DNA of 64,000 nt from Amphiscolops sp. MND2022. Taxonomy: Eukaryota. The stretch is from NCBI GenBank assembly GCA_964187785.1, contig OZ076409.1, forward strand, positions 69,752,001 through 69,816,000, in the 5' to 3' direction. The first letter of the stretch is position 1. Each line of letters begins with the position of its first letter. Below are positions 3,650 to 44,645 of this stretch, piece after piece. The notes under the pieces are model-generated. The model was given only the letters and a program-made list of their open reading frames with translations. It had not been told where the DNA came from and ran no database searches. The translations under genes were made by a program, and so were the position numbers.

Positions 3650-4861
3650 GCCCGTTTTGGGTGTCAAGCACTCATGTACTTAGAAAAACCAAGGCGGAAC
3701 AAGTTTGAAAGTAGAGTCGTGGAAAGTTTTTTACTCGGCAATAGCAACAAATATATGTCAATGTTGGTCGAAATTCAATTGGCACAGAATTCATCGCGAT
3801 TAATAGCCGCAATAATAAATCCACGAGAATAGTTACCCAGATAAAACACACTTCGCAAACACTGCAAGTGACAGTGAATTTTTTTCGAATTAAACGAACG
3901 AGGGAGTGAAATAAAGTTCCAAGACACAGAATCAGTCGTCAATTCACAAAACTTGACTAGCGATGTCAGTGAGTTGCAAAACAGTGACGTTTGCGGTAAT
4001 CTAGAAGTTTTGGATACTGAGCGATCAGACAGGACTAACACAAAATCTGCAGCGTAATTAGACTATGCGTTCTTCGACAAATATGGACAAAAAGTGAAGC
4101 CGCCTGATAGATATATCCCTGGTACAAGCAGCAGCTTGTCTTCCGACTTAGGTTCGTCTGATTTCGATAAAACTGAAACGCTCAAAACGCATACCGGTTA
4201 TGTTGATAAAGAGTTCTTAAAAAGCATTGAAGAAGCGCTTCCCACTCCATATTGACATCGTGCAATGAAATAGGAAAACGAATCGTTACAGGAAACTGAA
4301 CTGTGGGAACTCAATGAAATGACAGAGAAACACACCCTGTTACAGGTAAATGGTTTCTTACACGTAAACTAAACAGTAATGGAGAAATCATCGAGAAGAA
4401 AGCAATGTACGTAGTCAAAGGATTCAAACAAATGCAAGGTGTTGACCACAATCAAACACATAGTTGTGAAAAAGGTTACATTTAGAGTTTTGCTGAGTTC
4501 AGCAGATCGAAGAAAAATGAAGTTAAAACAGTTAGACATGAAAACGATTTAGTTGAACGCAGGTAAAGAAGAAAAGTTTTGCAGACCAGCCAGAAAGGTT
4601 TTCCAAGGAAACGCTAATAGCAAAAACTACATTTTTTAGATATAAAAAAATCACTTTATGCATTGAATGAATCCGGACTACTGGTTCAATACACTTAGAA
4701 TTCTTCTGCGCAGCATTCAGTTCAAAACGAACAAGATTGATCCTTGTTTGTTCTTGAGAGAACGAAACGGTCATATAGACTTCGTAGCAAACGAAATATG
4801 AATAGATACGGAAAAGGATACTACGATACATGTCGACAATGAGACTTGTACCGCAATAACC
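3650..4861 (+). pseudogene. Ty1/Copia pol remnant (post-integrase SH3-like domain, RT, start of RNase H)
   Basis: RFGCQALMYLEKPRRNKFESRVVESFLLG (SH3-like); PVTGKWFLTRKLNSNGEIIEKKAMYVVKGFKQMQGVD, TFRVLLSSADRRKMKLKQLDMKT, WFNTLRILL..DPCLF (RVT_2 motifs); TIHVDNETC (RNase H). Many stops and frameshifts. Confidence 0.85.
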
Positions 4862-5066
4862 AACAAGCCAAGAACGGCCAAAGTCGGCGCTATATCTAAG
4901 GCTCAATATTGTGAAAGGGGACTCTTCGGGCTGTTTTAAACTCCAACTGGTTGCAAAATATGAAAAAATTGAAGGGGGACACTTTGGCGACATTAAATAA
5001 TTTCCAAAATTTTTTTTTTGAATTCAACTTTTTGAACAGTGTCACATTGCCGAAAAATGTAAAATG
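4862..5066 (-). mobile_element. HINE family 1, 3' part (rest at 7587-7979), inserted in the Copia RNase H
   Basis: Begins AACAAGCCAAGAACGGCCAAAGTCGGCGC, the reverse complement of the family 3' end; matches the intact copy at 22705-23268. Confidence 0.75.
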
Positions 5067-7590
5067 CATCATTTATAGCTCTTTGGATTTGGGAACTAAC
5101 GCTACTCATCATCTCATCCATTTCTCTAGATATTCTGGAGTTTAACTCGCTCGACAACTTGTTAATCTCGGCTTGAGAGTTCATGTCTGTTGAATTTTGG
5201 CCATAATCGGCACTTGACCTGACATTAGAATTTCTATGATCCGAATAAGGGTTTTCCTCCCTTTCATCTAAATTGTTACTCACAATACTCTCATGCCTCC
5301 TAATTGAAGTGCTATCGAGACTTCCGTCTCTTTCAGCTTCATTGAAATGATTTTCTCCCAACATGATATCGAAGTTTTCGATATCTGAGAGGATTTCTAA
5401 ACCTCTTGATGTCCTCGCTTTCTTCTGTTTTCTGGTGGTAGGCATTGAAACAGTTCCGAATCAACAATGAATCAATCAATACGGAAAATAACAGCGGTGC
5501 CGTTTGTAGATCAATCTTTACTAGGAGAAAATAATATGAATTGTGTCCCACTCATGCTAAACACCGGTATTTATACCCCTGAGTGGATGACAACCACATT
5601 TTTCACATATTTCTAGTTAAGATTAATATTGTAATGTATATGATCTTTACATATCTTGGGAATTTATAAGATAATATTTCGGAAGGTATTTAAGTCATCA
5701 AACACCTCTAGTTACATACCTCACATATTAGTGAGTAGCAACAAAGTACATATTTCAACAAAGTCCCAATTGGGAAAACTCCCGACATATACGTGTTTCC
5801 CAGAAACGCAAAATCAAACGATTAACATTTTGGTAGGTGTACATAGTAGTACTTCAAACAACATTTTCATGAAAATATTATCATTCTATCGTCAACAAAT
5901 GATATTGCCCGTTGATGGAATGCAAAACTCGCATCACTGGTATGTTATGCTAGCACGTGCCACCACGCGACTATTAATCAACATTGAGGGAAGCAAATCA
6001 AACAATGCATGCACAGTCTATTTGAGATATCATCACACTATTGGAACAGAGTATTTTCTAAAAGTGGCCGAAACCGGCTACTATCCGTTTGGTCTTTACT
6101 AACATGAAATAATAGTTCGGTGAATGGCCCTATTCGGCCGAATAATAAAATAGGGCATTAAACTGCAAAAATGAGTATCCAATTAACATGATAGACACAA
6201 TTATCCGATTACCAATTAAGTACATGTATGCTAGACAGTTTATTACTCACAAGTGCAAGACGGCCGGAACCGGCCATTTAACCAAAGTACCAAACAATAA
6301 AGGCAGAATTACGTCATGTGGCCTAATCCGGCCAAATAGTGAGTACAATAAAAGCACCACCAAATGAGCGAACGTGATTGGTTAGCGTAACGAGCTCAAG
6401 TGACTTTTCCGAATTTGGAGTTACCTTCACTTGAACTCGTTTCCTTTACGCTGCAAAGCTGTTTAATTGTTTCAATTGCTTACAATGTTATACTGCACCT
6501 CTATTCTGATACATACCAGTCCAATCTTTCGATCCAGTCCATAAGCTTTGTAATTTTAAAAGACTAATGCGTATACATATACAAATGGGAAAATTTAACA
6601 ACATCAATAAATGCAACATATTTAAAGCAACAAAGTAGTGTAAAATTTTGTTTAATTGTTCTTTTGGCTAATAAATGGGGAGTGTGCCGGACGCTGTCTC
6701 CTGTCCTTGTGCAGTCGTCGTGATCTTAGTGCCGTCACAGGCGGCAGCCTGCGACACTGCGGGTGCTAAGAAAAATGCACTACCGCGTTAAGGCCGTTTG
6801 AATAGGCTTCTCTTCGTAGGGCGGTGACATAAGCGGATTCACTCCTGGGCGTAGATCTTTCCATGTACCAGTTGATTTTCTCTTGTTTTATCTCATCAAT
6901 TGATTTGCCACAAACCATACAACTGTGGCATCTCTAACGGCTAAGGTCCGCATACGGCAACACATTTTGTATATGATAATAGACGTGGTAGTTGTCACTT
7001 ACTGCTTGCGGCATAGGAGTGTCCAGTGATGGTCCCCTTTCATGATCGAGGGGAGAAATAGGCGTTTCTAGGACTGGTAAGATGGTGTTGCATAGTTCGA
7101 TTCTTGTCTTCTGCTTTTTAGAGGGAGCTAGACACTTTTCCATATCAAAGTATTTGAAGCCCAGCTTGGGGGTAGAAGGCGGAACCGGCTGCGCGTTGCT
7201 ACGTCCCGCTTCCAATTCGTCATCTAGCCCTTCAGTTGTCATTATTCGTCCCGCGATGAGAATTGGGCGTGACTTAACCTCCCGTTCGATTTTGCTGATC
7301 GGCGCTTCCGTGTCTGTGGACCAGTCCGAATCCCAATCGCTGGATACTTCGTCCTCACTGTCACTGGAAATGTAAATCACGGAATCCGCTGATTCCTCAG
7401 AACTTTGTTCTTCGAAGTCGAAAAGTTTTTTCGACAAGTTAAATCTTTGCATTATTCTTTTCTTTGCAGTTTTGATTGATGCAAGAGGCAACTGGTTTAG
7501 TTAGAACTTCGAAGTAGAATGAAATCACTAAATTCTAGAATTTAGCCGAGTCGGGTCTTTTCCGGGCAGTTCGTTTTGGCGGTTGAAACT
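5067..7590 (-). repeat. Templated copy of Gypsy A segment 8152-10662 (partial LTR, gag N-terminus and accessory ORF)
   Basis: Near-identical to 8152-10662; contains ORFs 4993-5445 (MPTTRK...) and 6934-7491 (MPLASIK..., premature stop). Confidence 0.9.
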
Positions 7591-7979
7591 TTTTGAACAG
7601 TGTCACATTGCCGAAAAATGTAAAATGGGACCCTTTGAGCACTTCTGACATCCATTGTGTTGCAAAATATCGAAACAAAAGACAGGGAGACCTTTTGGTG
7701 CAATCCAAAATGTTTCAAAAAAATTCGCATAGTGCCGAAAAAAAGTGGGGGGGGGGTTTAGCTAAAGGAGGGGATCCTTAGTGTGTTTTCGATGTTCTGC
7801 ACGTGTGTTTGTTTTGTTTTTCCTTTTCGTTTTGGATGCGCTTCTGAGGTTCGAGTGATTTGAACCTCCGCTGTAGTTCAAGTTGTTGAACAAATGAACA
7901 AAAAAGTGAGCCTTACCCGAGTAAAAAAATACCACTGTGAGAGTCCGGCAAACTTTCTACGAAAATGCGCCGACTAAAA
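7587..7979 (-). mobile_element. HINE family 1, 5' part
   Basis: Matches 22866-23268; ends in the hairpin arm AAAATGCGCCGACTAAAA. Confidence 0.75.
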
Positions 7980-7986
7980 GCACAGT

Positions 7987-9827
7987 TGTAATGAACATGT
8001 CGGTTAGTGAACTCGCCATTGAGGTGGCCATCACTCTGTTCATTTCTAAGATTAGTTTTTGCGAACAGAAGCTTCCCATCCCCATCTAGTCTCATGTCCC
8101 GATCCGGCTATGATGGCACTCTGGATTTGGGGTAGAACTTGATTGTTTATGGCATCATTTATAGCTCTTTGGATTTGGGAACTAACGCTACTCATCATCT
8201 CATCCATTTCTTTAGATATTCTGGAATTTAACTCGCTCGACAACTTGTTAATCTCGGCTTGAGAGTTCATGTCTGTTGAATTTTGGCCATAATCGGCACT
8301 TGACCTGACATTAGAATTTCTATGATCCGAATAAGGGTTTTCCTCCCTTTCATCTAAACCGTTACTTACAATACTCTCATGCCTCCTAATTGAAGTGCTA
8401 TCGAGACTTCCGTCTCTTTCAGCTTCATTGAAATGATTTTCTCCCAACATGATATCGAAATTTTTGATATCTGAGAGTATTTCTAAACCTCTTGATGTCC
8501 TCGCTTTCTTCTGTTTTCTGGTGGTAGGCATTGAAACAGTTCGGAATCAACAATGAATCAATCAATACGGAAAATAACAGCGATGCCGTTTGTAGATCAA
8601 TCTTCACTAGGAGAAAATAATATGAATTGTGTCCCACTCACGCTAAACACCGGTATTTATACCCCTGAGTGGATGACAACCACATTTTTCACATATTTCT
8701 AGTTAAGATTAATATTGTAATGCACATGATCTTTACATACCTTGGGAATTTATAAGATAATATTTCGAAAGGTATTTAAGTCATCAAACACCTCTAGTTA
8801 CATACCTCACATATTAGTGAGTAGCAACAAAGTACATATTTCAACAAAGTCCCAATTGGGAAAACTCCTGACATATAGGTGTTTCCAAGAAACGCAAAAT
8901 CAAACGATTAACATTTCGGTAGGTGTACATAGTAGTACTTCAAACAACATTTTCATGAAAATATTATCATTCTATCGTCAACAAATATTATTGCCCGTTG
9001 ATGGAATGCAAAACTCGCATCACTGGTATGTTATGCTAGCACGTGCCACCACGCGACTATTAATCAACATTGAGGGAAGCAAATCAAACAATGCATGCAC
9101 TGACTATTTAAGATATCATCACACTATTGGAACAGAGTATTTTCTAAAAGTGGCCGAAACCGGCTACTATCCGTTTGGTCTTTACTAACATGAAATAATA
9201 GTTCGGTGAATGGCCCTATTCGGCCGAATAATAAAATAGGGCATGAAACTGCAAAAATGAGTATCCAATTAACATGAAAGACACAATTATCCGATTACCA
9301 ATTAAGTACATGTATGCTAGACAGTTTATCACTCACAAGTGCAAGACGGCCGGAACCGGCCATTTAACCAAAGTACCAAACAATAAAGGCAGAATTACGT
9401 CATGTGGCCTAATCCGGCCAAATAGTGAGTACAATAATAGCACCACCAAATGAGCGAACGTGATTGGTTAGCGTAACGAGCTCAAGGGACTTTTCCGAAT
9501 TTGGAGTTACGTTCATTTTAACTCGTTTCCTTTACGCTGCAAAGCTGTTTAATTGTTTCAATTGCTTACATTGTTATACTGCACCTCTATTCTGATACAT
9601 ACCAGTCCAATCTTTCGATTGTAATTTTAAAAGACTAATGCGTATACATATACAAATGGGAAAATTTAACAACATCAATAAATGCAACATATTTAAAGCA
9701 ACAAAGTAGTGTAAAATTTTGTTTAATTGTTCTTTTGGCTAATAAATGGGGAGTGTGCCGGACGCTGTCTCCTGTCCTTGTGCAGTCGTGGTGATCTTAG
9801 TGCCGTCACAGGCAGCAGCCTGCGACA
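7987..9827 (-). repeat. Gypsy A 3' LTR (~1.84 kb)
   Basis: Direct repeat of 23276-25224; on the minus strand starts TGTCGCAGG and ends GTTCATTACA. Confidence 0.8.
8052..8531 (-). CDS. Gag N-terminal (coiled-coil-like) segment encoded inside the 3' LTR
   Basis: MPTTRKQKKAR...EINKLSSELNSRISKEMDEMM; three copies in the window; lies downstream of the LTR TATA box. Confidence 0.65.
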   Translation of the reverse strand: MPTTRKQKKARTSRGLEILSDIKNFDIMLGENHFNEAERDGSLDSTSIRRHESIVSNGLDEREENPYSDHRNSNVRSSADYGQNSTDMNSQAEINKLSSELNSRISKEMDEMMSSVSSQIQRAINDAINNQVLPQIQSAIIAGSGHETRWGWEASVRKN

Positions 9828-10563
9828 CTGCGGGTGCTAAGAAAAGTGCACTACCCGCGTTAAGGCCGTTTAAATAGGCTTCTCTTCGTAGGGCGGTGAC
9901 ATAAGCGGATTTACTCCTGGGCGTAGATCTTTCCATGTACCAGTTGATTTTCTCTTGTTTTATCTCATCAATTGATTTGCCACAAACCTTACAACTGTGG
10001 CATCTCTGACGGCTAAGGTCCGCATACGGCAACACCTTTTGTATATGATAAGAGACGTGGTAGTTGTCACTTACTACTTGCGGCATAGGAGTGTCCAGTG
10101 ATGGTCCCCTTTCATGATCGGGGGGAGAAATAGGCGTTTCTAGGACTGGTAAGATGGTGTTGCATAGTTCGATTCTTGTCTTCTGCTTTTTAGAGGGAGC
10201 TAGACACTTTTCCTTATCAAAGTATTTGAAGCCCAGCTTGGGGGTAGAAGGCGGAACCGGCTGCGCGTTGCTAGGTCCCGCTTCCAATTCGTCATCTAGC
10301 CCTTCAGTTGTCATTATTCGTCCCGCGATGGGAATTGGGCGTGACTTAACCTCCCGTTTGATTTTGCTGATCAGCGCTTCCGTGTCTGTGGACCAGTCCG
10401 AATCCCAATCGCTGGATACTTTGTCCTCACTGTCACTGGAAATGTAAATCACGGAATCCGCTGATTCCTCAGAACTTTGTTCTTCGAAGTCGAAAAGTTT
10501 TTTCGACAAGTTAAATCTTTGCATTATTATTTTCTTTGCAGTTTTGATTGATGCAAGAGGCAA
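9739..10563 (-). CDS. 274-aa accessory ORF of Gypsy A (acidic N-terminus, CxxCxxC motif), 3' end overlapping the LTR
   Basis: Intact ATG-to-stop ORF with SDSEDKVSSDWDSDWSTD and CHSCKVCGK; the last ~29 codons lie inside the LTR; second copy at 6934-7491. Confidence 0.65.
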   Translation of the reverse strand: MPLASIKTAKKIIMQRFNLSKKLFDFEEQSSEESADSVIYISSDSEDKVSSDWDSDWSTDTEALISKIKREVKSRPIPIAGRIMTTEGLDDELEAGPSNAQPVPPSTPKLGFKYFDKEKCLAPSKKQKTRIELCNTILPVLETPISPPDHERGPSLDTPMPQVVSDNYHVSYHIQKVLPYADLSRQRCHSCKVCGKSIDEIKQEKINWYMERSTPRSKSAYVTALRREAYLNGLNAGSALFLAPAVSQAAACDGTKITTTAQGQETASGTLPIY

Positions 10564-11588
10564 CTGGTTTAGTTAGAACTTCGAAGTAGAATGAAATCAC
10601 TAAATTCTAGGATTTAGCCGAGTCGGGTCTTTTCCCGGCAGTTCGTTTTAACGGTTGAAACTTCGGTAAAACATCCTAATCCGACATAAACATTCCTAAA
10701 TGGAGTTTCATAATTGGTCGGCAGTCTTTGATAGCTCGAAGTTTACCCCTCATCAATATCATCACTAGAAGAGGTGTGAATGACGCTCGAATTATTGATA
10801 TCAACTACACCAGTCTCAAGTGGGTAATTAACGGGTTGCTTGGAGGCGAATAATGGCACGCGTCACCAAAATTTCTCAGAATGGCTTGGGCCAATCAGGA
10901 ACACCCACCACTAAAATGAAAAATAAATTATTAAAATGGCAAAAGTAATGACTGAAAATAATCTAAAATGGCGGAAATTCTAACTAAGGGTAACTAGGAT
11001 AACAGAACAAAGCGGTAAAATAGGGTGAGGCAAAGGCCGTAACCGGCCACTAGCTGGTTGAGCTACAAGTAATGTAAGAATCTTTGTACATTTCGCTGGC
11101 AGACTCCATGTACAATTTTAAATATGTAAATAACTATATAATATTAGTCTGGTAATTCCTTCAGCCACGAACTCCAACTTTCACTCTTTTGATTGTTACA
11201 AATTTCAATTGTCTTTTTTGTCTATACTAGTTATATTTGTAACCTTCCACTTCTTTGTCGCGGATTACACCTTGCATCTTTGTTCAATTCCAATCTCCCC
11301 TTTTGGTTCTTCCCGTGGAGTTATCCAGCTCATTTCCCTTTTCCTGCTGAGGTCGGTCCGTTCTTTCGACTATGTCATCCGATCAAGGACTGCTTCCTGG
11401 AGGACGGGATCTTCACAGTGGAATGACTTCGAACGAAGGTTGGTTTGGATTTCATATTTTGAACTAATTTAACTTGATCAAGGCTAAACTTTGTTCACTA
11501 GATGCTTCCTGTTTCCATCAAAGAACACGTGATAACACGTTTTCTCAAAGTTTTCAAAACACTTCCGGAAGTTTTCTAACGCGGTAAA

Positions 11589-14500
11589 ATGGATTTCTTT
11601 CAAGGAAGCTCACCGCCAAATTTCATCTCTTTCTGTTTAGACAACCAGAATGTCAATGAGACTCAAACATCCTCCAACCCGGTTCTAGAAATTCCAACTG
11701 AGCCACTCCAGACCCAGGCCTCAACAGGTAGTGCGCTACCTGATACCCCTACTGAGCCGGATTCTGGACGGCCCAACGTTGCAGCATTTGAGGCCTCCCC
11801 CGGAAGCATTGATAGTCAAACGGACGTCAACGTCTATGCTGAGTTAATGGTGCGTCGGCTTGAATCTTCACAAGCTTCAGAGCTGAGAGCCGCCCCTGTT
11901 CAGGTTTCTTCAGGGCTCGATGGGACTTCGGAGCCAAGAGAACAAAGGGAATGGACTCCTCTTCCATCTCCAAACTTGGCCAATACCCCTTCCAACCCAG
12001 TGAGGGTATATCCATAGATAGTAGTCTGACCCAGTTAGAGCCCACTCTCAGAGTTGCTACTACATCGAGGACGCAACTCCCCGAATTACTCTCGACCCAT
12101 GACTTGTCCCGAGAACACTCTGATCCTTCCAACTTGCAGTCTAACGAGGATAATGATTCTTCCATCTACGAAGTTCCTGCCTTTCCAAGTGGAGAAGCCA
12201 GAGTGCGATTCTTAACTGATTTCAGTGAAGCAGAGAAAACTGCTGAAGAAGCTAGCCACGTCGATCTCACCGTTCTTTATGGGAATAATCCAGTCACATC
12301 CGAGTCAGGGACCGAGGGCGGTGATGAGATGGACTCCATTTCACAAGAGGTACGACTGAACAGGCCTAGTACCTCATCTGTCAGAAGGCTTGATGACGGG
12401 CTCCCTGAGCTCTCTGGCTGGAGTCGGGCATTGCTCAAGACTTACTTTGATGAAGTCAAATCCTTCAATTTGACACAGGGGCATCCCACTGTGGTTTTCT
12501 CCGAATCGCAAATGTATCACTTGCTGAGGATCCTAGCGGATAAAACTTTGAGCATGTCATACACCACTATGGAACGCATGGTTCTGGACGCTATTAAAGG
12601 CACGCCCACAGCTGTTCCCTCGAGGACGGACCAACTCCTGTTGAAGACTCGGGCCTCCACTCCCTTCCGGGTTCCTGACAGTGATTCAAGCGATGCTGAA
12701 TCAGCTATAGTCGATGTCCGGCGAATTGAAACATCAGACTCTGGGGAATCTTGTACCCTAGGAGACATATCCATACCCGAGGAGAGTGACAGTTCAGGGG
12801 AGATGGATCTCACTTCTCAGTCTTTCAAAAAATCAAGTTAGCGTATTTCCACACACCAAGTCCAAGAGATAGCGACAACTTCTTCGCTGGGAAAATGGCC
12901 TGAACAGGATTGTACCAGCAGCGATGATGCGACCCTGTCTGAAGTGAGAAGACAAACACTTGGAGAGAAGGAACAAACGACGGGTAAGGACAAGTTGCCA
13001 AAGAAGAGCAAGAGGCAGCCACACCGAGGGGTCCCTATGCGGGAGGAATTCTTCGCCAAGATTTGGTGGACCCGTTCCTTTATATCCGGTCCCGCTGACC
13101 CACTCCATAACCCTTACATGGTGTGGTGTCACATGTGCAAAAAAAAACATTTCCATTCGCAGTAAGGGAACTATGGAAATCCTCCGCCACCATAGGACCG
13201 AAAGGCACCTTTGAGGAAATCAACGGTGCCAGTACGAGCACCTGAGGAGCGTTGATCCCGTCACAAACAAGCTGCAGCATCGGGTGCGTGGCCGGAATGG
13301 GAAGCTCTTGACTACGATTGAGCTGGCGCGTGAGCTGCTTAAGTTCTTACACGCGGAACTCGTTGACACTGGTGAGCGTTTTCCCTTTTACCACGACTTT
13401 ATTGAAGGCCGGACCACAGCTTTAGTAACACCCGAATCCAGGGCTAATACTCAATTGCGAATTGTCGGCGATTTTATCCAACGCCAAGGAGACTTTTCCG
13501 TCCTTCGAAGTTTATGGTCCAGCATCAGCTCTCTCGCAGATCATCACGCCAGTCTCTGTGACTTTGATTGGGGAGATGAGAGAATGACGGTAATCATTAA
13601 TTTGTAGTTGGTACTTCTTTTCCCAAATAAGTCCTCTGCTCAATGCATTTGTTTAGTCTTTAGGTTATTTTCCAGCATTTCTTCAATTGTGCTTTATCTG
13701 AGATCGCGGAGCACGTTGCCACCGAACCGAACCTTGCCATTGAGTTCGAAACCAAGGGCACTAAACGGTTCATGTCCGTGCGATTCTGGAAGGGAGAGGA
13801 TTTGTGCAGAGTGCTTGTTTGCCGGAATGGGCTACCGTCCTCGGAGTTGACTGGAGAGCTAGGATCATTGGCCCGATTGCTCTCTGTGGTTTCGACCAAG
13901 ACTGACATCGTTGCTTGTTCTGGGTGCCCAGTCGACCTTCTCCGCACAATTGATCAGTCTCCCTTCTTCACTGGAGGTGTTCAGAGTTGCTTCAGATTCG
14001 AACAAGTTGACGTGCCTAGGCTCATGCACAAGCTGAACTACAGTGTTTTCGTACACATCGATTTCTTCTCAGTATTGAGAGGGCTTTTGATATCTCTGGG
14101 TAGATCTCTCACGACGGACTGGATTCAACGCAGCCCTGAGCTGACAAGGGTGAGTACCTTTTGGACATTTTGAACTTACCGGAGATCTCTAAGTCTGTGG
14201 GGTAGGAAGTTCCATATCCACTCAATCAGTTCAAGTAGTGACGTATGTAAATTTTCTTCAGGCCCTTACCATGAGCAAACTGGATCTACCAATACTGCCA
14301 AGAGTTGGTTGACGAATGGGATTCCGTCACAAAATACCTTACTGAGCACTGCCCTCGCCAACAAGGACAAGGAGTTAGGACGCGGGTAATTAGAGTGATT
14401 TTTCCACTAGAGGGTCGGTTTAGACCTGGCAGTGTAATTAAGTAGACCTGTCCGGCCAGATCTCTTCATGTCCCCTGATTTTGTTTTTCCATGTTTAGGT

Positions 14501-15939
14501 GCAGAGTTTAGAGTGGGCTCTCATTTGCGACGAATTCTTCGCCGTGAAACTGGAATTCTTCTACCGACTTGTCAGCGACTGTTAGTATATTTTGTTGCTT
14601 CAGAAGATCTCTCAGTTCCTATAAGCATTGGGTCACTTTAGGGCGCTCGGTAGGCATTTTCTCAGTATTTTGCATTGTTCCCAACCTGATTGTTCTCCTT
14701 ATTGTCCAATGTGGTTCGGATTGTAATGTGGGCTTCTTGTTCCTCTCGGTACTTCAATCATTTCAGTTTCTCTGTTTGCAGTCAATTCCAGTTTCTCAAT
14801 CAACACCAAGCAACGACGTGATTCCTCTTTCTTCTTGTGTGGTGAAGTTTCGCGCTGTATCCACAAATTGTGTTCCAGATGTTATACTTCAGACACCTTT
14901 CCGCTTGAAAATTCCTGGTTCCTCCTGTTGGCATTCCGAACCAGTGATGGGACCTTCTTCTCTGGGGAGGAGTTCTTGATCCGTCTAAACATGAGCAACA
15001 AAGTTACAACGGCGAGCAAACGAAAAACGGAAGGGGTCCATTCACGCAAGCGGATAGAGAGGGCGATTCTTCAGAAGACGACTGATACCATCAAGGCAGA
15101 GTTTGTGCAGGACGGGTTGCAGTACCTACAGTGCTTGATTGGGGAGGTTCTGCGACAAGCTGGCTTGAGCTCCAACATACTTAAGGGGTTGGCTGCATTT
15201 GACCCCTTCATCATGTTTAGACGGCCAATTGAAGTTGCCCTTCGGCACTTTGACCTCTTGTATGACACATTCCTGCGTCGATCCTTGGTAACTGCAGCGA
15301 ATCAGGTTGCTTGCCGAGACGAGTATGTTAGCCTCTTGGATTATCTTCGGGCCAATTATTCTCCTGATTTTGTTGTTACTGATTTAGCGCGTTACCTGAT
15401 GGATTTTATGATCAATTTGGAAATTCTGCAGTCTCGACGGCTTCTTATCTATCTTTTCAAACTCAGCTGTTGGTGCATCACAGCCGTCAGTCCTCAGTAT
15501 CCCTCCGTATCAGCGGGTCGTTTTGACACTTCTGGGTTTTGTGACAGGTTTACCGATGTAGTCCTGCCCTCCCAAAGTTACCTTTCCGCCGTGCCAGGGG
15601 CTGTACCCTATTGTAGCTCCGATGCTCAGCTTGCAAACTTCTCTCTTCTTACTGCCTCTTTTGGGCAGACTGCCTTCTCACTAGATCTCCCTGGGACAGT
15701 GTTCACCAAGTTGGACGGGCGAAGATCTATAAATCACTGGTGTCTTCGTACCAGAAATTCTCTCTGGGCCTAAAAGGGTCTCTGTGCGGGAGGAAGCCGG
15801 AGAGACTATCACCATTGCTGATCAGTCTGCCTTAAAGGTCCCCAGCAGCACTAAACGTCGAAGAAGGGAGCGGACTGCCTCTCGATCTGCCACCTAATCA
15901 GTAGCTGGGGAATCCGAGCAAAGCACATCTAACCTCTAA
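11589..15939 (+). pseudogene. Spliced antisense accessory gene: S/P/E-rich N-terminus, BED-like zinc finger, possibly hAT-transposase-derived body
   Basis: WCHMCKK-NISIRSKGTMEILRHHRTERH (CxxC...HxxxxxH) across a frameshift; GT-AG introns 13590-13663 (phase 0, joins ORFs 13284 and 13772 in frame), 14150-14261 and 14386-14498; long ORF 14835-15773; several frameshifts. Confidence 0.65.
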
Positions 15940-16050
15940 TTGTCCATATGTGCATGTGTATCCAAAACTGTAAACTTTGTTAATTTCTTTTGTTGTTTTG
16001 TAACCTTCGATCCCTGTATTTATTTCTGGAAGGGATTCCTTGTTGCCATG

Positions 16051-16062
16051 CCCCTTTTCTCT
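16051..16062 (-). promoter_or_regulatory. Polypurine tract just downstream of Gypsy A pol
   Basis: Minus strand AGAGAAAAGGGG followed by CA-TGGCAAC, ~100 bp after the pol end. Confidence 0.6.
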
Positions 16063-16149
16063 AAAGTACGCTCTTGGGGCTAAAAAAGAAAAAATGAAAG
16101 GGAAAAAGAATAGAGAACAGCGTTCGTTCTTGGACGTAATTTAATCTTT

Positions 16150-19100
16150 TTCTGGTATCTAAGGTCTTCTGAATAGTTTGGGTTAGGGTGAGGCCTGAGG
16201 TTATATTTCCCTCCTCTAGGGCTCAGACTTTCATTTCTTGCATCATTTTCCGATATTTCGGGCACGATAATATCATCCCCCTTTTTGGAGAACTTTGTTC
16301 GTCGTTTTCATTGACTGGGTTTGTTTCTGGAAAATTTTCATCGCTTTTCAGTTTTTCATCCGTTTTCAGCAAGGATTTTTCTTGTTTTTGAGGAACCGGC
16401 CGGATTCGGCCAATCAGATTTTTCATTTCTAGTCCCTTCACTAGTTTCATTTCTTTCAGTGACGTCATCATTTAATCTTTCTTTCCGGCTCTGCGCCGCA
16501 TGGTCAGTGTAATTTGTTTCGTCTCTCGTGATTATGTAATCCGCTTCATTCTCGTCTACGTCACTTTGAATCGGTTCCGCCGCGTTCGGTTGTTCGCCAT
16601 TCGGCAAGCTAGTCGGAATAGGATCATGTCCTCGTATAACATGCTGCTCGCCAAAGTCCGTTTCCCACGCTATGATATATAAGTCATCTTGCGGAATAAC
16701 AATTTTTTCATCAGGCTGTAGCCGCTGTTCTCGGAAATTGTCCTCAAGCGGTTGATTGGGGACGAACTTTTTAAGGCGAATCCGATGCAATATTTGAGTC
16801 TTGTTTGTTATAATTCGTCGTACAATATAATTTTCATTAGGTAAAACTTTTTGGACTATAAATGATCCGACCCAACGATAATCACGGAATGGAATTTTTG
16901 ATCCTTGATGATCTGCTTTTGGCTGTAAGACAAAGCAGTAATCATTCTCCTTTAATGGAGCGGCTTTTGCCTTGCGGTCATAATCTTCTTTGTACTTGAT
17001 AAACGACTGCATAATATTTTGCTTTGTTTTGTCAATCAAGATTTTTGTCCGGTTTCGTATTTCTTCAGCAAATTCAGTTGTTGGATTGATCTGTTCGTTT
17101 GGATTATTCCCAAGTTTGTGATCGAGAATACTATATGGGATTCTTCCATGAAATACTCTTGTCGGCTCACAACCGATGCTGGCATGGTAGCTAGTGTTAT
17201 GGTTTAGTACTGCTAGTGGCAAGTATCTGTGCCATTGTCGGCGGAATTCTCCACATGCCATTTTGAGGTTTGTTTTCAATGAGGCATGGGTCCGCTCTAA
17301 TTCCCCAATTGTTTGCGGGTGTTTTGTTGTTGCACATTTGAGTGTTATGCCCAAAATTTGCGTAATCTCCGCAATAATTGTGGACGTGTATGCAGTACTT
17401 TTGTCAGTAATAAGTGTTGTCGGTAAAAATGCATGCTTGGTCATAATGTCAATGAGCGCTTTTGCTACATTGATCGCTGACGCGTCCGTGAGAGGATAGG
17501 CGAACAGGTATCTGAAAAATACATCAATTGCTGTTAGGACGTTTTCATACCCTCCACTTGGGGGAAGATTCGGCAATAGGTCGATCTGCATGGCGTCCTC
17601 AGGTCCGAGGTCCCATTCGGGCAAGTTGAGCAGTTCGGGTGTAATTGTTGTGTTAGGGATCTCTTGTCTCTGGCACATTGTTCGCACCCGTCTACCCACT
17701 TTTTGACGTGTTTAGCCATGCTAGGGTAGTATTACCTCTGTCGGATATCCTGCAACATTTTTGAGATACCAGGATGTTTATGCGCTGTCCCATGGAGAGA
17801 CTGAAGCAATTCCTGGAGTAAGTGCTGCGGGAGCAGAATTTGGTGGTATTTAACGTTCCCTGTTTCGTCAAAGTATTGCCTCGTCAGGATGTCGTCCTTA
17901 AGTACGATTCGTTCCAGGTTGTTTGCATAATGTCTGTATCGAGCATCCCGTTGCAGTAGGTTCTCTGAATACTCTTCATGAAGGAGTTTTGCCTTCAATT
18001 GTTGTAGTACTGCATCTTTGGATTGTTCGATAATGATCTGGTTCGTTTTCCTTAATAGGACTTGTATATCAGGATGTTGTTTGACTAGGTTTGTTGACAG
18101 AGATTGTATTGAAACAGTGGGCTCATCAATAGCTGGATTTTTCCTGATTGCCTTTTTTCTTGCCCAATATTGTTCTTCTGTCTCATCGTCATCATTAGTG
18201 TAGACGATTTGTTCTTCTTGTGGCACTCCTGCTGATTGGACGTTTCTTTCAATTGGTAGGGTTTGAACATCTTCGCGGATTTTCATTACTAATTTGTCCT
18301 TCGGGTCTGCTTCCAAACGGGACAAATAGTCGGCAGCTGTATTTTGTGCTCCTGGGATGTGCGCTATGACAAAATTGAACTGAATCACATAATCACACGC
18401 ATTCCACAGGGCTGGGGGTTTTATTTTCGTTTGAAAAAATCGCATGACAGCTTTGTTGTCTGTAAGGATTATGACCGGTTTAGGCGCACCCCAGAAGATA
18501 TGTCCGAATTCTTTGAATGCGAATTAAATTGCAAGAAATTCCTTGGCATAAATAGACATCTTGATTTGAGCTGGGGTGAAGGTTTTTGAGCCATAAGCGA
18601 CCGGTGCATACGATTTTCTGAGTGACGTAAGTTTCTGGTTCGGGTCGTCTTCAATTAGGACTGCATATCCAGCTGCACCAAAACTGGCGTCAGTCATTAG
18701 TGCAATTTGTTTGTTTGGAATGGGATGTTGTAGGGCCAAATGGCAACACTTGTCGAGTGCTTTTCTGATTTCCTCGAATTGTTAATTCTTTCGATACCAG
18801 GACCTTTTCGTCACTTTTCAGCATCTTGTAGAATGGAGCAAGGCGTTCTGAGAGTCTTGGGACATAATTTCTGTAGTATTTCAAGAATCCCAAATAGCGT
18901 TGTAAAGCCTTTTTCGACTTTGGGAAATTGGTTTTTTCCAGAAAGTTTTGTACGTTCTGTTTCTGCGGTTTGACGCCTTGTGGGGAAATTGTTCGTCCGA
19001 GGAAATCAATTCCTTTTGCACCGAAGTGACATTTGTGCATTGTCAACTTCAGGCCTGCTTCCTGAATGCATTTGAACGTTGCTCTCAGGTTAGTTATGAG

Positions 19101-21340: not shown

Positions 21341-21346
21341 TTTTTT
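21340..21346 (-). promoter_or_regulatory. Putative -1 ribosomal frameshift slippery heptamer A AAA AAC at the gag/pol junction
   Basis: Minus strand ...GAGTAAAAAAAC-TAA at the end of gag; the overlapping frame reads KKTNFATTPT. Confidence 0.6.
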
Positions 21347-22463
21347 TACTCAACATTAGGAGATGAGAATTGAGAGCTTGATGATGTCGGCTTGTTCTGT
21401 GGTTTCTGAGCCTTTGAATTGGGCTTATTGTCATTGGAGTCCTCGGATCTGGTGCGTTTAGGTTCAAGATGCGCACCAGCGCCTTGCCAACATCTTTCCT
21501 CCGGGTGATTCTTTTTGCCACAAGTGCCGCACTCTGGATATGTTCTCTTCTGAGTCAATTTGCCTTGTTGGGCATCTTTCTCTTTTTTCTTTTTCAACTT
21601 CTCGCAGTCTTTGACCATATGGCCCTTCTCTTTGCAATAGTTGCAAGTTATGTCCGACATTTGCCCTGTGGAAAGGGGAGTTTTGGGTTTGGAGGATGAG
21701 GTGGTCATTGTTGCCATGGGTAGGTCATCTGACTCCTCAAGGGCATTAAGCTCTAGTTCTCTTTCCAAATGAGCAACTATTTCGTCGTAAGAGCCGTTTT
21801 CTAGTCCTGTCATATTGACTGATCTTTTGAGTTTTGGTGGCAGTTTTGCATATAGCAAACTGTCAATCATTTTCTGCGCATGGTCGCCAAATGCCTTTTC
21901 TGCACCTTGATTTAATTCTTCAAGGAAATCGGGCAGCTTCATCGTATTGGGATCGAAGACCAGACGGTGCCATTTATGTTTGGCAGTCGCCTGCGACTCA
22001 GGTTTGACGTATTATCGTCGGAAGATGACTAGTACGTCTTCAAGAGTTTGTCGATTTGTCGAATTGATGTTTCTAAATGTCTCGAGGGCATTTTTCCTCA
22101 GTAGTGAATGGAAATGGTTAATTTTCATCTGTTCGGTCATTTCTGGCTGCATCTTGATCATAGTGTGAAAAAGATCTTCGAACAGCTCAAATTTCTCACT
22201 TTTGCCGTTGAAGGTCATGGTATTGGAATTGACCGGGCGTATGGTGAGTTGTTGTGCTGTTGGTCTATTCTGCATAGTAGTCAAGACGTCGGCCAATCTG
22301 GTATTGGGATCAGGATCTGCAGCTGTAGCGATTCGCTCATGCGCTGGGATCATCGTGTCAAGGTTGATGTCCTCATAGGACTGATTGAGATGACTTCTTG
22401 ATGGGATACGTCCTGTGAGAAACTCAGGAACTTGATTTGGAGATTCGTTGTCTGCTGTCACCA
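21346..22463 (-). pseudogene. gag: Gypsy A gag, internal part (capsid-like region, two zinc knuckles)
   Basis: FNGKSEKFELFEDLF..INHFHSLLRKNAL; CNYCKEKGHMVKDC and CGTCGKKNHPEERC; one frameshift near 22012. Confidence 0.88.
22452..22463 (-). promoter_or_regulatory. Primer-binding site of Gypsy A (TGGTGACAGCAG)
   Basis: Directly follows GTTCATGACA, the same 10-mer that ends the LTR at 23276; starts with TGG. Cognate tRNA not assigned. Confidence 0.7.
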
Positions 22464-22500
22464 TGTCATGAACGTTCAATTCAGTGTAATGATTGTTTGA

Positions 22501-23275
22501 ATGCATTGAATGAATCCGGACTACTGGGTCAATACACTTAGAATTCTTCTGCGTAGCATTCAGTTCAAAACGAACAAGATTGATCCTTGTTTGTTCTTGA
22601 GAGAACGAAATGGTCATATAGACTTCGTAGCAAACGAAATATGAATAGATACGGAAAAGGTAACTACGATACATGTCGACAATGAGACTTGTACCGCAAT
22701 AACCAACAAGCCAAGAACGGCCAAAGTCGGCGCTATATCTAATGCTCAATATTGTGAAAGGGGGACTCTTCGGGCTGTTTGAATCTCCAACTGGTTGCAA
22801 ATCATGAAAAAATTGAAGGGGGACACTTTGGCGACGTTAAATAATTTCCAAAATTTTTTTTGATTCAACTTTTTGAACAGTGTCACATTGCCGAAAAATG
22901 TAAAATGGGACCCTTTGAGCACTTCTGACATCCATTGTGTTGCAAAATATCGAAACAAAAGACAGGGAGACCTTTTGGTGCAATCCAAAATGTTTCAAAA
23001 AAAATTCGCATAGTGCCGAAAAAAAGCGGGGGGGGGGGGGGTGGCTTTAGCTAAAGGAGGGGATCCTTAGTGTGTTTTCGATGTTCTGCACGTGTGTTTG
23101 TTTTGTTTTTCCTTTTCGTTTTGGTTGCGCTTCTGAGGTTCCAGTGGTTTGAACCTCCGCTGTAGTTCAAGTTGTTGAACAAATGAACCAAAAAGTTCGC
23201 CTTACGCGAGTAAAACAATACCACTGTGAGAGTCCGGCAAACTTTCTACTAAAATGCGCCGACTAAAAGCACAGT
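22501..23275. repeat. Duplicate of the Gypsy A 3' flank (Copia RT/RH fragment 22501-22704 plus intact HINE 22705-23268)
   Basis: Matches 4658-5066 plus 7628-7986. Confidence 0.9.
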
Positions 23276-23288: not shown

Positions 23289-23861
23289 TCAGTTAGTGAA
23301 CTCGCCATTGAGGTGGCTATCACTCTGTTCATTTCTAAGATTAGTTTTTGCGTTGAAGTTGCGTAGGACTTCGGAGTTAATTTCCGGTTTCTCAACAGAA
23401 GCTTCCCATCCCCTTCTAGTCTCACGTCCCGATCCGGCTATGATGGCATTCTGGATTTGGGGTAGAACCTGATTGTTTATGGCATCATTTATAGCTCTAT
23501 GGATTTGGGAACTAACGCTACTCATCATCTCATCCATTTCTCTAGATATTCTGGAGTTTAACTCGCTCGACAACTTGTTAATCTCAGCTTGAGAGTTCAT
23601 GTCTATTGAATTTTGGCCATAATCGGCACTTGACCTGACATTAGAATTTCTATGATCCGAATAAGGGTTTTCCTCCCTTTCATCTAAATTGTTACTCACA
23701 ATACTCTCATGCCTCCTAATTGAAGTGCTATCGAGAGTTCCGTCTCTTTCAGTTTCATTGAAATGATTTTCTCCCAACATGATATCAAGATTTTCCATAT
23801 CTGAGAGGATTTCTAAACCTCTTGATTTCATCGCTTTCTCCTGTTTTCTAGTGGTAGGCAT
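23289..23861 (-). CDS. Gag N-terminal segment inside the 5'/solo LTR
   Basis: 190-aa ORF MPTTRKQEKAMK... ending 13 nt from the LTR terminus; the stop is probably a CGA>TGA change, since the copy near 8000 has CGA. Confidence 0.65.
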   Translation of the reverse strand: MPTTRKQEKAMKSRGLEILSDMENLDIMLGENHFNETERDGTLDSTSIRRHESIVSNNLDEREENPYSDHRNSNVRSSADYGQNSIDMNSQAEINKLSSELNSRISREMDEMMSSVSSQIHRAINDAINNQVLPQIQNAIIAGSGRETRRGWEASVEKPEINSEVLRNFNAKTNLRNEQSDSHLNGEFTN

Positions 23862-23958
23862 TGAAAAAGTTCCGAATCACCAATGAATTATTCAATACGG
23901 AAAATAACAGCGGTGCTGTTTGTAGATCAATCTTTACGAAGAGAAATTAATATGAATT

Positions 23959-29852: not shown

Positions 29853-30240
29853 TTATTTATTTTTTTTGAAAATGCGTTTTTTGAATCAATCCTGAGTGAG
29901 AGCACTGTAAGAAAATGTATATACGTTTTCTTAGAGTTGTTATACGGTGATATACCGCGTCCGAATTATTCGGTTCAATGAAGTGCCAATCAAACTGAAA
30001 ATGAACATATACCAACAAACTATAATTGTTCCTCTTTCTGTTTATACATATTTTTATACATATGTACACTAGATTAGTTTCGTAAGGAACCATTGTTGTT
30101 AACGTAAATTTACGATACAGTTTGGCATTAGAAAATAGAAATCAGTACTGACATTGTTTTATTATATCTTAACAAAGCAGAAATAGAACAAGAGTGCTTT
30201 CAGGATTGATTAAAAAACGCAGTTTTTCAAAATAATAAAT
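29853..30240. repeat. Imperfect palindrome (~65-bp arms) interrupted by the Gypsy B LTR
   Basis: TTGAAAATGCGTTTTTTGAATCAATCCTGA..AGCACTGTAAGAAAA versus TTTTCTTAGAGT|GCTTTCAGGATTGATTAAAAAACGCAGTTTTTCAA. Confidence 0.75.
29938..30190 (+). repeat. Gypsy B solo LTR (253 bp) with TSD AGAGT
   Basis: TGTT...AACA; AGAGT at 29933-29937 and 30191-30195; appears identical to 36612-36864. Confidence 0.9.
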
Positions 30241-31440
30241 ATAATCACAAACAAAATGTCTTAAAATGATAGCAGTATTGGTTCAAAAATTCCATGAAGC
30301 TATATTTGCGATCCTGGTTGAACCAAGATTAGACTTTTTAAAAAAAACATTGTTTCAGAGAGATCCAAGCCTTCGTTCTAACGTTGTTAAAGTTACAGTA
30401 TTTCAAAGTGAGCATTATTTGCAAAGTACAGAAACTATATTGAGCCTTAAAATGCGCAATATCTAGTTTCAATCTCCACTGAAAGAAATCTCCACTTCTC
30501 TTTTGGAAGTTTTGTATCGCATTGAGAAGCCGGATGATAAACCACAAACTCTAGAATCTAGTTTTTTTGTTTCTCTTCAAAGCACTTCAGGACGCACGGA
30601 GACGTCAAAATGTTACCTTCTGAATTGTAACCTTCCAAGGTGGTATTCTTTTCTGAGACGAGCTCTTTGCTAAATAGCTCTCTCCGAAGCCTTTTTAAAT
30701 ATCTAAAATGGAAATCCATGAGCAGTGACAAAAACGTATTTCAATTCCAGTTTTTTGTCTCAGAACATGGTAAAGCAAAATCTCATTTCAAACGTCGTAA
30801 AATGCACAGTTTATGAGAATGCTTTCACTTTTCAATTTTTGTACCATATTTGCTTTCTAAAAACCAAAATTGTTACTTGTCAGTTATTTTTGTTCAATTG
30901 ATGCTTTTTCAGAAAGCTTTTTGTGTATCTATTTGACCGCTAGAATTCTAAAGAAACCAAGGATAACTATCGCTCGATTGATTATGGGGGATATTTCGGC
31001 ACATTCAAAAATTCATGACTGATTTTGGCTTCAAATTGTGTTGAAAAATCATAAGCTCTTGAAATAGTCTTGAATTTTGCCGAGTTAAGATGTCGAGTTA
31101 AATGTATTAAACTTTTTCACAATTTTTTCAAATCAGGTCATTCCTGCCCGAATTTTTTTTCTGTCGGGAAACTAGATTTTTTCTGACTAATTCTTTTTAC
31201 AATCTAAAGTAAGAAAGTAAGTTAAAGAAACAGAAGGGATTAATACAGTGAAATGAAACGATACGAGGTTAGGATGACTATTCGTATGTAGATGTCTAAG
31301 CAGTTACATCAAACTCTTTACACAGTCTTCTTCTACCATATATGTATGGGATTGCATGCCTTCAGAATAGTAGCAGGTACTTGGAATGTTCTTTTTAGGT
31401 TGGCCATGAACATATTCGTTTCACACTCCCCCTCTTTGGA
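30191..31440. repeat. Duplicate of the Gypsy B 3' flank (36865-38110), including a Gypsy C LTR copy at 31205-31425
   Basis: Near-identical sequence with a few substitutions and small indels. Confidence 0.92.
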
Positions 31441-44381: not shown

Positions 44382-44469
44382 AGAAACTTATTTTCGGAGC
44401 TATGAACTCCCTCCCACTTGCTTCTTCTTAAACTTCCACGGTCTCAAAATCATCTTCACAACGTGTATA

Positions 44470-44645
44470 GACAAAGGCGCCCCAGACAAAAGCACCCCAG
44501 TCAAAAGCGCCCATCTTACACAGTTATAAGCGCCCTGATCAAAAGCGCCCCGGTCAAAAGCGCCCCGGTCAAAAGCGCCCCGGTCAAAAGCGCCCCGGTC
44601 AAAAGCGCCCCGGTCAAAAGCGCCCCGGTCAAAAGCGCCCCAATG
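44470..44645. repeat. 15-bp minisatellite GGTCAAAAGCGCCCC (MITE subterminal array; related arrays at 46480-46563 and inverted at 46855-46895)
   Basis: About 7 near-perfect tandem units plus degenerate ones. Confidence 0.9.

Follow-up and report, generated by a model that had tools for sequence, protein, structure and literature searches.

Antisense open reading frames between pol and the 3' LTR have been described in several Gypsy retrotransposons, namely plant Retand (TRP28, PF04195), maize Grande (gene23), rice RIRE2 and fungal Boty (PMC11963269, PMC7264820). According to these reports, such frames occur in nearly all active copies, have an internal promoter of their own in Grande, and have been proposed to have a nuclear or DNA-binding role (PMC11963269, PMC7264820). 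The same sources call the origin and function of the antisense genes of LTR retrotransposons open, and an origin by nested insertion lacked support (PMC7264820, PMC11963269). The window analysed here, 64,000 nucleotides of Amphiscolops sp. MND2022 DNA, holds a Gypsy element with the same arrangement, and almost every active copy of its family carries such a frame. Our reading, to which we give a probability of about 0.5 as a whole, is that this is a fixed and selected antisense gene of hAT origin, whose catalytically dead product would bind DNA in the nucleus as a regulator and would likely sustain transcription of its own element.

The Gypsy element and its antisense gene

The host of the antisense module is a Ty3/Gypsy LTR retrotransposon lineage with elements of ~16 kb. 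The window copy is organised as follows.

7987..9827, minus strand: 3' LTR, matching the 5' LTR in two blocks at 92.5-96.5% identity
16356..21176, minus strand: pol (protease, RT, RNase H region, integrase) in Ty3/Gypsy order, in three frames in this copy
21346..22463, minus strand: gag with a CCHC knuckle
22452..22463, minus strand: primer-binding site, in relatives complementary to the 3' end of a tRNA-Leu of the same genome
23276..25224, minus strand: 5' LTR (TG...CA ends), flanked by ACAGT

In this copy, ACAGT (7982-7986) lies just outside the 3' LTR and matches the flank beyond the 5' LTR, and ~800 bp of duplicated left-flank DNA stands between the 5' LTR and the primer-binding site. Pfam recognised RVT_1 (E 8e-16), rve (E 1e-8), Integrase_H2C2 and gag-asp_proteas in the window's pol. 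The gag frame of unbroken relatives begins within the 5' LTR and crosses the primer-binding site (564-592 aa frames over LTR and internal region), and the tRNA-Leu(CAG) end that matches the primer-binding site TGGTGACAGGAG was called by ARAGORN in 1/6 loci scanned. LTRs of family copies measure 1.5-1.95 kb, end in TG...CA and are 95.4-99.95% identical within pairs. A short purine run of the AGGGGAG type precedes the 3' LTR in 9/33 loci (all deep lineages), and a CCCGCAG type is found in the remaining 24, the window's group included. In a quick tree of this genome's elements only, the RTs of 37 module-bearing copies form a single clade separate from two further Gypsy elements of the window (SH-aLRT 98). 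The family is very abundant and young, with at least several hundred copies in the genome.

Two additional genes stand head-to-head between pol and the 3' LTR, one of them on the strand opposite to gag-pol.

9739..10545 (open frame 9739-10572), minus strand: orfM, a conserved additional gene of ~270 aa, on the strand of gag-pol, reaching ~29 codons into the 3' LTR
10546..11588, strandless: spacer between orfM and the antisense gene, 1.0-1.2 kb
10589-10594, minus strand: Inr-like TCATTC facing orfM, before orfM in 27/30 copies against a background of about 0.1 per 45 nt
11475-11480: TGATCA, 32/32 copies
11561-11571: ETS-type palindrome ACTTCCGGAAG, directly before the antisense ATG, 31/32 copies
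11589..13589, plus strand: antisense exon 1, ATG at 11589, broken in this copy
13590..13663, plus strand: intron 1, phase 0, GT..AG in 55/57 copies, 69-249 nt
13664..14149, plus strand: exon 2, predicted RNase H-like strands b1-b5 lacking the hAT catalytic aspartates
14150..14261, plus strand: intron 2, phase 0, GT..AG in 57/57 copies
14262..14385, plus strand: exon 3, 124 nt and out of frame here, 135 nt in most copies
14386..14498, plus strand: intron 3, phase 0, precisely missing in 14/57 copies, splice dinucleotides 42/43 where present
14499..14580, plus strand: exon 4, 82 nt
14581..14781, plus strand: intron 4, phase 1, GT 57/57, AG 57/57
14782..15939, plus strand: exon 5, all-helical and in this resembling the insertion and C-terminal domains of hAT, E-R-x-F-S absent, broken near its end here
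15940..15990, plus strand: 3' UTR, where relatives have a UGUA-rich motif immediately behind the stop; the motif is degenerate here

On the strength of the conservation of its three motifs, the spacer is likely an internal two-way promoter shared by orfM and the antisense gene. The first ATG of orfM is at 10524, with a conserved KIAKK-type peptide just upstream of it; the protein has an acidic V-I-Y-I-S-S motif, a CxxC in 26/26 copies and a SIM-like motif in 20/26.

The antisense gene encodes ~1290 aa in five exons. Exon 1 specifies, in order, a conserved N-terminal peptide, a long S/P/E/D/T-rich stretch, a conserved helical block, a BED-like finger and a further domain. The finger, W-x3-F ... 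C-x2-C-x16-H-x5-H at about 13127-13209, retains both cysteines in 30/31 copies and both histidines in 31/31; its W and F are conserved too, its H-x5-H spacing equals that of one hAT of the same genome, and the best Pfam zf-BED match has E 4.1. Exon 5 includes a basic NLS-like tail (21/21), and TGTAHAWA follows a stop within 12 nt in 30/37 copies. In the one copy analysed no transmembrane stretch was found in the module protein (maximal 19-residue hydropathy, KD19, 1.54). An env-like third ORF was considered and rejected, the module being antisense and the hydropathy maxima being 1.54 for the module and 1.34 for orfM (one copy).

The first-pass annotation had placed a plus-strand gene at 11589-15939 with this ATG and GT-AG junctions at 13589/13664, 14149/14262 and 14385/14499, and all of these match the present model, as does its view of intron 1 as an in-frame link between two ORFs (phase 0). 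Its three introns are real, but its count fell short, the phase-1 intron 14581-14781 having been overlooked; there are four. The long S/P/E-rich N-terminus that it described is confirmed, S, P, E, D and T making up 46% of the N-terminal 485 aa. Its C-C-H-H finger holds as regards ligand conservation across copies, but in the window copy the CxxC and the His pair do not share a common frame.

Indeed, the window's own copy of the module is a pseudogene. Exon 1 contains a frame shift near 11990-12010, a stop at 12839-12841 and a further stop near 13213, and an additional frame shift in an A-run near 13140-13148 lies inside the zinc finger, so that the CxxC and the two His fall in different frames. 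Exon 3 is 124 nt long here vs 135 nt in 19/20 other copies, and exon 5 is shifted in frame near 15690-15760.

Linkage, selection and splicing

The antisense gene is far beyond chance, because its exon-2 frame is matched throughout the genome (150 scored matches out of 5715 candidates, 63-100% identity, down to E 1e-68) and because splice dinucleotides occupy identical places (55/57, 57/57, 42/43 and 57/57 copies for introns 1-4) while intron sequence and length diverge. Chance ORFs were rejected as an explanation. The antisense mRNA is very probably spliced and translated. Splicing is indicated indirectly by the repeated and precise loss of intron 3, which is gone at 0 nt in 14/57 copies that do not form one clade (AU p 0.003, 6 vs 13 rows). 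Exon joins in the database proteins P0094, P0133 and P0208 agree with the prediction, and P0133 and P0208 run exon 4 directly into exon 5.

It is virtually certain that the module is fixed cargo of the Gypsy element and not a nested insertion. At loci chosen by the gene, integrase adjoins it on the opposite strand in 42/43; at loci chosen by integrase (the best integrase copies), all exons plus orfM are present in 20/20. Complete elements show a 5-bp target duplication in 25/28 and an 8-bp one in 0/28, and the module is colinear with the retroelement flanks in all full copies. The cargo status claimed by the first-pass annotation is thus upheld by linkage and target duplications, and element copies without the module, whose existence it had left as a possibility, are not represented among the 20 integrase-chosen loci. 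Its statement that neither terminal inverted repeats nor a target duplication surround the gene agrees with the 8-bp count and with the inverted repeats of 10500-16400, where none of the 25 longest (of 61 pairs) brackets the module.

Comparison of the copies indicates that the antisense gene is kept intact by selection. Median dN/dS is 0.14 and 0.06 for exon 1, 0.07 for exon 2, 0.10 for exon 5 and 0.13 for orfM, values drawn from unsaturated pairs only, most pairs being saturated and dropped (62/351 kept for exon 2); the comparison across copies proposed earlier therefore gives 0.06-0.14, not a ratio near 1. That the module is a recent nested hAT insertion or a passive passenger is scarcely credible. 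The window copy is a pseudogene, as a passenger might be, and one locus in 43 (C1530) has a shortened module with no pol beyond; but position and orientation are constant across lineages that share only 26-40% identity in their module proteins, dN/dS is about 0.1, and neither TIRs nor an 8-bp duplication occur. The nested hAT insertion is refuted by dN/dS, by the layout in deep lineages and by the 20/20 integrase-chosen loci.

Probable relationship of the protein to hAT transposases

The antisense protein is probably a descendant of a hAT transposase, and its ~1290 aa likely represent such a transposase without its catalytic residues. For the front half, Foldseek placed Hermes transposase in rows 1-3 and in 6 of the top 10, with a best E of 3.6e-3 that misses 1e-3 and a model of mean pLDDT 40; when the same pLDDT-40 model was re-aligned with VIA, Hermes ranked 1, 2, 5 and 7 (Z 3.7, rmsd 3.9, 85 residues). 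The predicted order of exon 2 in this low-confidence model is b1-b2-b3-aA-b4-aB-b5. For exons 4-5, Dimer_Tnp_hAT clusters accounted for 27/30 ESM Atlas hits and FAM200/GTF2IRD2 for 2 more (score 0.91), at 123-141 shared features only, the range of distant or chance hits; the query was P0133, a database homolog 39% identical, in place of the window's protein, and P0001 gave no usable match. The first-pass annotation had suggested a transposase-derived factor from the finger; this derivation can be extended, because the hAT likeness covers the whole conserved part of the protein, although no sequence score is significant.

Other searches returned little. A wide VIA search with both models gave no hAT row save the Hermes BED domain (Z 2.9), the best row for the front half being unrelated (Z 3.6); the exon-5 model (pLDDT 59.5) found no hAT among PDB folds, and the viral fold library yielded nothing under E 1e-3. 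Pfam reported no family above cut-off for the module or orfM, whether the query was a window ORF, a database homolog or one of 64 alignment members (PF05699 0/64), and a PDB search by sequence profile gave nothing below E 0.6. When exon profiles were searched by HMM against 108 ORFs near this genome's hAT matches, the top two were wrong-frame artefacts. Alignments by hhalign to two hAT profiles of this genome did not exceed reversed controls (probability 1% or less); the best of these non-significant alignments land on matching hAT positions, finger on finger and A-F-D-P on I-F-D-P. A genome search with Pfam DUF4371 and a database search for relatives of one hAT of this genome both returned nothing.

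It is improbable that the cargo is instead a non-hAT zinc-finger protein, from a host gene or a virus not yet known, that resembles hAT by chance. The non-significant Pfam, PDB-sequence and profile-profile matches and the low-confidence models speak for this explanation. Against it, two separate methods point to hAT for two halves of the protein, the finger, RNase H-like strands, helical block and F-D-P motif follow the hAT order, and the best profile alignments, non-significant as they are, fall on corresponding positions.

With catalytic positions assigned from predicted topology and known motifs, the Asp after strand 4 is absent in 37/37 copies, the strand-1 position is E/A/D (30/6/1), and E-R-x-F-S is absent in 30/30. 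Column counts did not reveal the hAT DDE triad or the CxxH and RW motifs, and the exon-3 alignment has no R-W. A still-active nuclease or transposase with a rebuilt active site is highly improbable. One strand-1 glutamate, two residues off the usual catalytic position, is invariant (37/37) and speaks for it, but no acidic residue follows strand 4, the third-residue motif is missing, and there are neither terminal repeats as substrate nor 8-bp duplications.

Possible function and comparison with known systems

The gene moves inside an element that inserts with 5-bp duplications, which is observed. An ancestral hAT may have landed antisense in the spacer between pol and the LTR, an orientation in which its introns go unrecognised when the genomic RNA is spliced and so survive reverse transcription; its catalytic residues and terminal repeats would since have been lost. 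The motifs conserved in the 1-kb spacer suggest an internal promoter there that would drive the antisense gene head-to-head with orfM. The protein would then enter the nucleus, where the zinc finger and the transposase scaffold that it has kept would bind element DNA and the long acidic N-terminal part might recruit or block chromatin factors. The anatomy retained appears regulator-like, with invariant zinc ligands, a basic tail, an S/P/E/D/T-rich N-terminus and no transmembrane stretch. We give about an even chance that the protein is a positive regulator or anti-silencer. VANC offers a precedent for an element-encoded regulator (PMC13317346), and Grande gene23 and Retand TRP28 for such a role in antisense genes (PMC7264820, PMC11963269).

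A role at integration, in which the hAT-derived cargo escorts or tethers the cDNA-integrase complex to chromatin for import or target choice, is rather unlikely. hAT transposase scaffolds bind element ends and target DNA, which would suit it, as would the basic NLS-like tail (21/21). Nuclear import has also been raised as a role for antisense ORFs (PMC7264820). However, the 25 target duplications share no obvious sequence by eye, the long acidic N-terminus better suits a role in transcription, and conservation within the main group is 80-93% for integrase vs 50-75% for the module, so that the two evolve at unequal pace.

Decidedly unlikely is a self-limiting repressor, in which the protein or the antisense RNA dampens the element and spares the host and thus the element. 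HBZ, a spliced antisense nuclear protein, lowers viral transcription (PMC10186651), the antisense transcript would stop close to where pol ends, and the UGUA-rich 3' UTR suggests tight control; but the family is young and has very many copies (95.4-99.95% identity within LTR pairs), and the gene persists in 20/20 best integrase copies, whereas cheaters would tend to lose a pure brake. Returning to the positive regulator, we tentatively suggest, at somewhat less than even odds, that the retrotransposon has domesticated an ancient hAT insertion together with its introns, that the resulting obligatory antisense gene, with its own promoter, and the SUMO-interacting-type orfM form a counter-silencing cassette of two genes behind the expansion of the lineage, and that introns are still being lost through the element's reverse transcription.

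Host-domesticated hAT derivatives (FAM200/GTF2IRD2, ZBED proteins) lose catalysis and retain DNA binding. With hAT transposases themselves (Hermes; intron-containing BuT2, PMC3942097), the protein likely shares the order of BED-like finger, RNase H-like strands, helical insertion and C-terminal domain, as well as several exons. It differs in having no TIRs, 8-bp duplication or DDE and an extra disordered N-terminus of 480 aa, and its keeper is a transposon, not a cell genome.

The available text on the Retand-type genes describes them as of unknown origin and without likeness to other TEs, and does not mention introns (PMC11963269, PMC7264820), whereas the present gene has four introns, ~1290 codons and a likely hAT derivation; TRP28 (PF04195) had no Pfam match in window ORFs, homologs or alignment members. 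Planarian Burro and the ORF3 of bdelloid Vesta and Juno likewise show large Gypsy elements with captured accessory coding, but the extra genes described there are ORFs on the sense strand or domains of the polyprotein (GDSL, DEDDy, BIR, env), and the words 'transposase' and 'intron' are absent from the main text of the bdelloid Gypsy paper (PMC6431247, PMC5408684). In the literature within reach, which leaves aside most subscription journals and Repbase, no Gypsy element was found described with an antisense gene that derives from a hAT or contains introns.

HTLV-1 HBZ is likewise encoded antisense towards the 3' side of an LTR element, by a spliced gene, and is a nuclear regulator, as is proposed for the present protein; but HBZ is small, of the bZIP type and expressed from the 3' LTR, in contrast to the internal promoter-like motifs and transposase-like protein here (PMC10186651). 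VANC of Arabidopsis VANDAL DNA transposons is also an accessory protein that its element encodes; it is proposed to act on that element family and evolves fast beside a conserved core enzyme, but it is another protein in another element class, and anti-silencing, as that report describes it, is demonstrated for VANC and inferred here (PMC13317346). If the account is true, the inheritance and loss of introns within a retroelement could be studied in this family as a natural system. The gene would also be a candidate, open to testing, for an anti-silencing factor that a retrotransposon encodes, and the family would supply a case of traceable origin in which one class of mobile element has tamed the enzyme of another.

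The element and its module

Element A, a Gypsy retrotransposon on the minus strand, resides in a genome of 1.07 Gb and carries between pol and the 3' LTR an antisense gene, the module (11589-15939, plus strand), and, head-to-head with it, a second extra gene, orfM. Its layout is as follows.

25224-23276, minus: 5' LTR
between the 5' LTR and pol, minus: gag
21176-16356, minus: pol, with Pfam RT and integrase
pol to 3' LTR, 6.5 kb: spacer, with the antisense gene and orfM inside
9827-7987, minus: 3' LTR

Both outer sides are flanked by ACAGT. The window copy is old and rearranged: its LTRs are 92.5-96.5% identical to each other, a second copy of approximately 800 bp of left-flank DNA (22474-23275) separates the primer-binding site from the 5' LTR, and 5066-7591 duplicates 8152-10663. 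A partial LTR-plus-internal duplicate (4658-7986) is inserted in the left flank. The element is Gypsy by every structural test except the purine tract; where this tract would be expected, ahead of the 3' LTR (9828-9840, minus), CCCGCAG stands in the window's group, many copies of which are young, and AGGGGAG in deep lineages. In the window (23289-23876, minus) and in relatives, the gag frame begins within the LTR and reads on through the primer-binding site, so that each LTR carries approximately 195 gag codons. Three further Gypsy-type elements of the window (29938-38111, 37879-43775 and 57963-62524) have no module; one has repeats of 1.5 kb and encodes gag-pol in a 1406-aa frame, one is broken and on the minus strand, and one has 307-bp repeats. 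The window also contains a tandem array with a 15-bp unit (44455-44657; related sequence near 46477-46571), and the genome contains a long tandem array of tRNA-Leu-like 3' ends at 230-300 bp spacing (G000:C8:35587100-35637577 and beyond), whose pattern has 1013 matches, most on one strand.

The first-pass annotation took the antisense gene to be cargo of the retrotransposon, and the genome-wide evidence upholds this. The exon-2 frame gave 150 scored matches among 5715 candidates. Four gene searches of growing distance supplied 43 loci (6 closest, 20 at 63-74%, 7 at 57-60% and 10 at 35-40% in exon 2). Integrase follows directly downstream, on the opposite strand, in 42 of them; the exception (C1530) has a break within exon 5 and no pol past it. 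Conversely, all exon groups and orfM were present in 20/20 of the top-ranking minus-strand matches to integrase (the window, three loci known from the gene searches and one short contig being omitted), a best-scoring and hence young sample in which deleted copies are under-sampled; no copy without the module appeared among them. A module with its own terminal inverted repeats and 8-bp duplication was not found either: no inverted repeat brackets the module, and both ends could be recovered for 28 elements, mostly 15.4-16.4 kb long, of which 25 show a perfect duplication of 5 bp and not one shows 8 bp. An autonomous hAT was ruled out as the identity of the element. LTR pairs are 95.4-99.95% identical, and in a quick tree the RTs of 37 module-bearing elements form one clade (SH-aLRT 98), apart from elements B and D of the window.

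Exons, introns and flanking motifs

The gene and its start lie in the window sequence where they had been annotated. The three proposed introns are all in place; a fourth (14581-14781, phase 1) had been missed, and comparison with 20 other copies revealed both this intron and the broken state of the window copy, where the frame is changed or stopped at several points, one of them within the zinc finger. A natural unbroken copy has exons of 2007, 486, 135, 82 and 1160 nt, totaling 1290 codons. GT..AG occurs at the profile-predicted sites of introns 1, 2 and 3 in 55/57, 57/57 and 42/43 loci, respectively; for intron 4, GT and AG are each present in 57/57, and intron lengths range from 66 to 250 nt. 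Among 268 database proteins examined, exons 3-4 are joined at the predicted place in P0094, and exons 4-5 in P0133 and P0208. Intron 3 is absent to the exact base in 14/57 loci, which do not group together in either the exon-2 or the exon-5 tree, and a single clade of such copies is rejected (p-AU 0.003, 19 rows). This repeated exact absence would be best explained by loss via copies of spliced mRNA; the predicted antisense mRNA has the same polarity as first-strand cDNA.

In the 32 of 38 copies where the start was found, the approximately 1-kb spacer before the antisense ATG holds an ETS-type palindrome (31/32) and TGATCA (32/32). On the other side, orfM is faced by an Inr-like motif in 27/30 copies, and a UGUA-rich motif directly follows the antisense stop in 30/37; these motifs are candidate elements. 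In orfM (9739-10545, minus), conservation begins at a KIAKK-type peptide ahead of the first Met, one deep lineage has no Met at that site, and the second codon lies within an AAA-ATH-GC context, so that a non-AUG start is possible. The frame, which runs into the 3' LTR, encodes a CxxC and an acidic V-I-Y-I-S-S motif that resembles a SUMO-interaction motif.

Affinity of the antisense protein and selection

Pfam and PDB sequence-profile searches gave no match for the module protein. Its finger, W-x3-F...C-x2-C-x16-H-x5-H, keeps its ligands in 30-31 of 31 copies. The model of the natural read-through frame (finger and exon 2) has a pLDDT of 40, yet shows an RNase H-like strand order; with this low-confidence model as the query, Foldseek placed the Hermes hAT transposase at ranks 1-3 of 350,542 chains (E 3.6e-3), and Hermes remained first after re-alignment (Z 3.7). 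An unguided wide structure search with the same model gave no clear hAT match, and the exon-5 model gave no fold match. Independently, for a homolog spanning exons 4-5, language-model features identified hAT dimerisation-domain clusters in 27/30 matches (0.91), with 133-141 shared features among the matches listed. Profile-profile comparison with the genome's own hATs was not significant; the best alignments nonetheless fell on matching positions. One hAT subgroup of the genome (L241, L242, L247 and L256) carries intact frames of 590-620 aa with an I-F-D-P motif as in exon 5, and shows no significant profile similarity to the module. Searching 1.84 billion representatives with the exon-5 profile yielded 654 relatives. 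All ten relatives looked up are unnamed ENA proteins, and two at 28-34% identity represent young families of the same genome; P0208 has no match >31% there, so the lineage likely extends further.

Taken together, the Hermes ranking and the hAT clusters, set beside the searches without significant match, favor the annotated transposase-derived reading, and we put a hAT origin at a probability of roughly 0.8. A gene for TRP28, the Retand antisense-ORF domain, was ruled out. If the hAT origin holds, catalysis has almost certainly been lost: the expected catalytic site at the end of strand 1 is E/A/D, the aspartate after strand 4 is absent in 37/37 and the E-R-x-F-S motif is absent in 30/30.

Pairwise dN/dS was computed over 27 natural copies, keeping only unsaturated pairs with dS > 0.3 (39-114 of 300-351 for the module). 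In the four module segments the medians are 0.14, 0.06, 0.07 and 0.10; orfM has 0.13, and RT, integrase and gag lie at 0.03-0.04. The values near 1 that the first-pass annotation had set against its own reading were not observed. Module synonymous sites approach saturation (dS > 2) where RT dS is approximately 0.46 in the same copies, implying that the module diversifies as pol is either exchanged or kept under constraint. Since the integrase tree topology also disagrees with the module tree, pol exchange among subfamilies is likely frequent.

Proposed history and known antisense genes

An intron-containing hAT gene may have inserted antisense into the pol-LTR spacer, where its introns would be kept since the genomic RNA carries their complement. 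Its ends and active site would then have disappeared, a long acidic N-terminus would have been added, and the gene would have turned obligatory for the element. The parts held by selection are the finger, the transposase scaffold and the basic tail, which together are the anatomy of host-domesticated hAT regulators. The antisense protein has about an even chance of being a positive, element-directed regulator or anti-silencer. Quick module change beside slow pol would fit an arms race over chromatin like that of VANC, the anti-silencing protein of Arabidopsis VANDAL, which evolves fast next to a conserved core enzyme (PMC13317346). An integration cofactor is an unlikely role for the protein, and a brake on the element, like the antisense nuclear regulator HBZ of HTLV-1, is slightly less likely still. 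Intron-containing hAT genes do exist, as excerpts of PMC3942097 describe for BuT2.

Our literature comparison, which also took in parts of PMC6431247, PMC5408684, PMC12477816 and PMC10186651 and did not extend to Repbase and most subscription journals, found no description of this arrangement. Excerpts of PMC7264820 and PMC11963269 place antisense genes at the same position as here in plant Retand, Grande and RIRE2 and in fungal Boty, state their origin as unknown and find an insertion origin unsupported by similarity to other TEs. The antisense position is already known; what would set this element apart is its unusual, testable origin.
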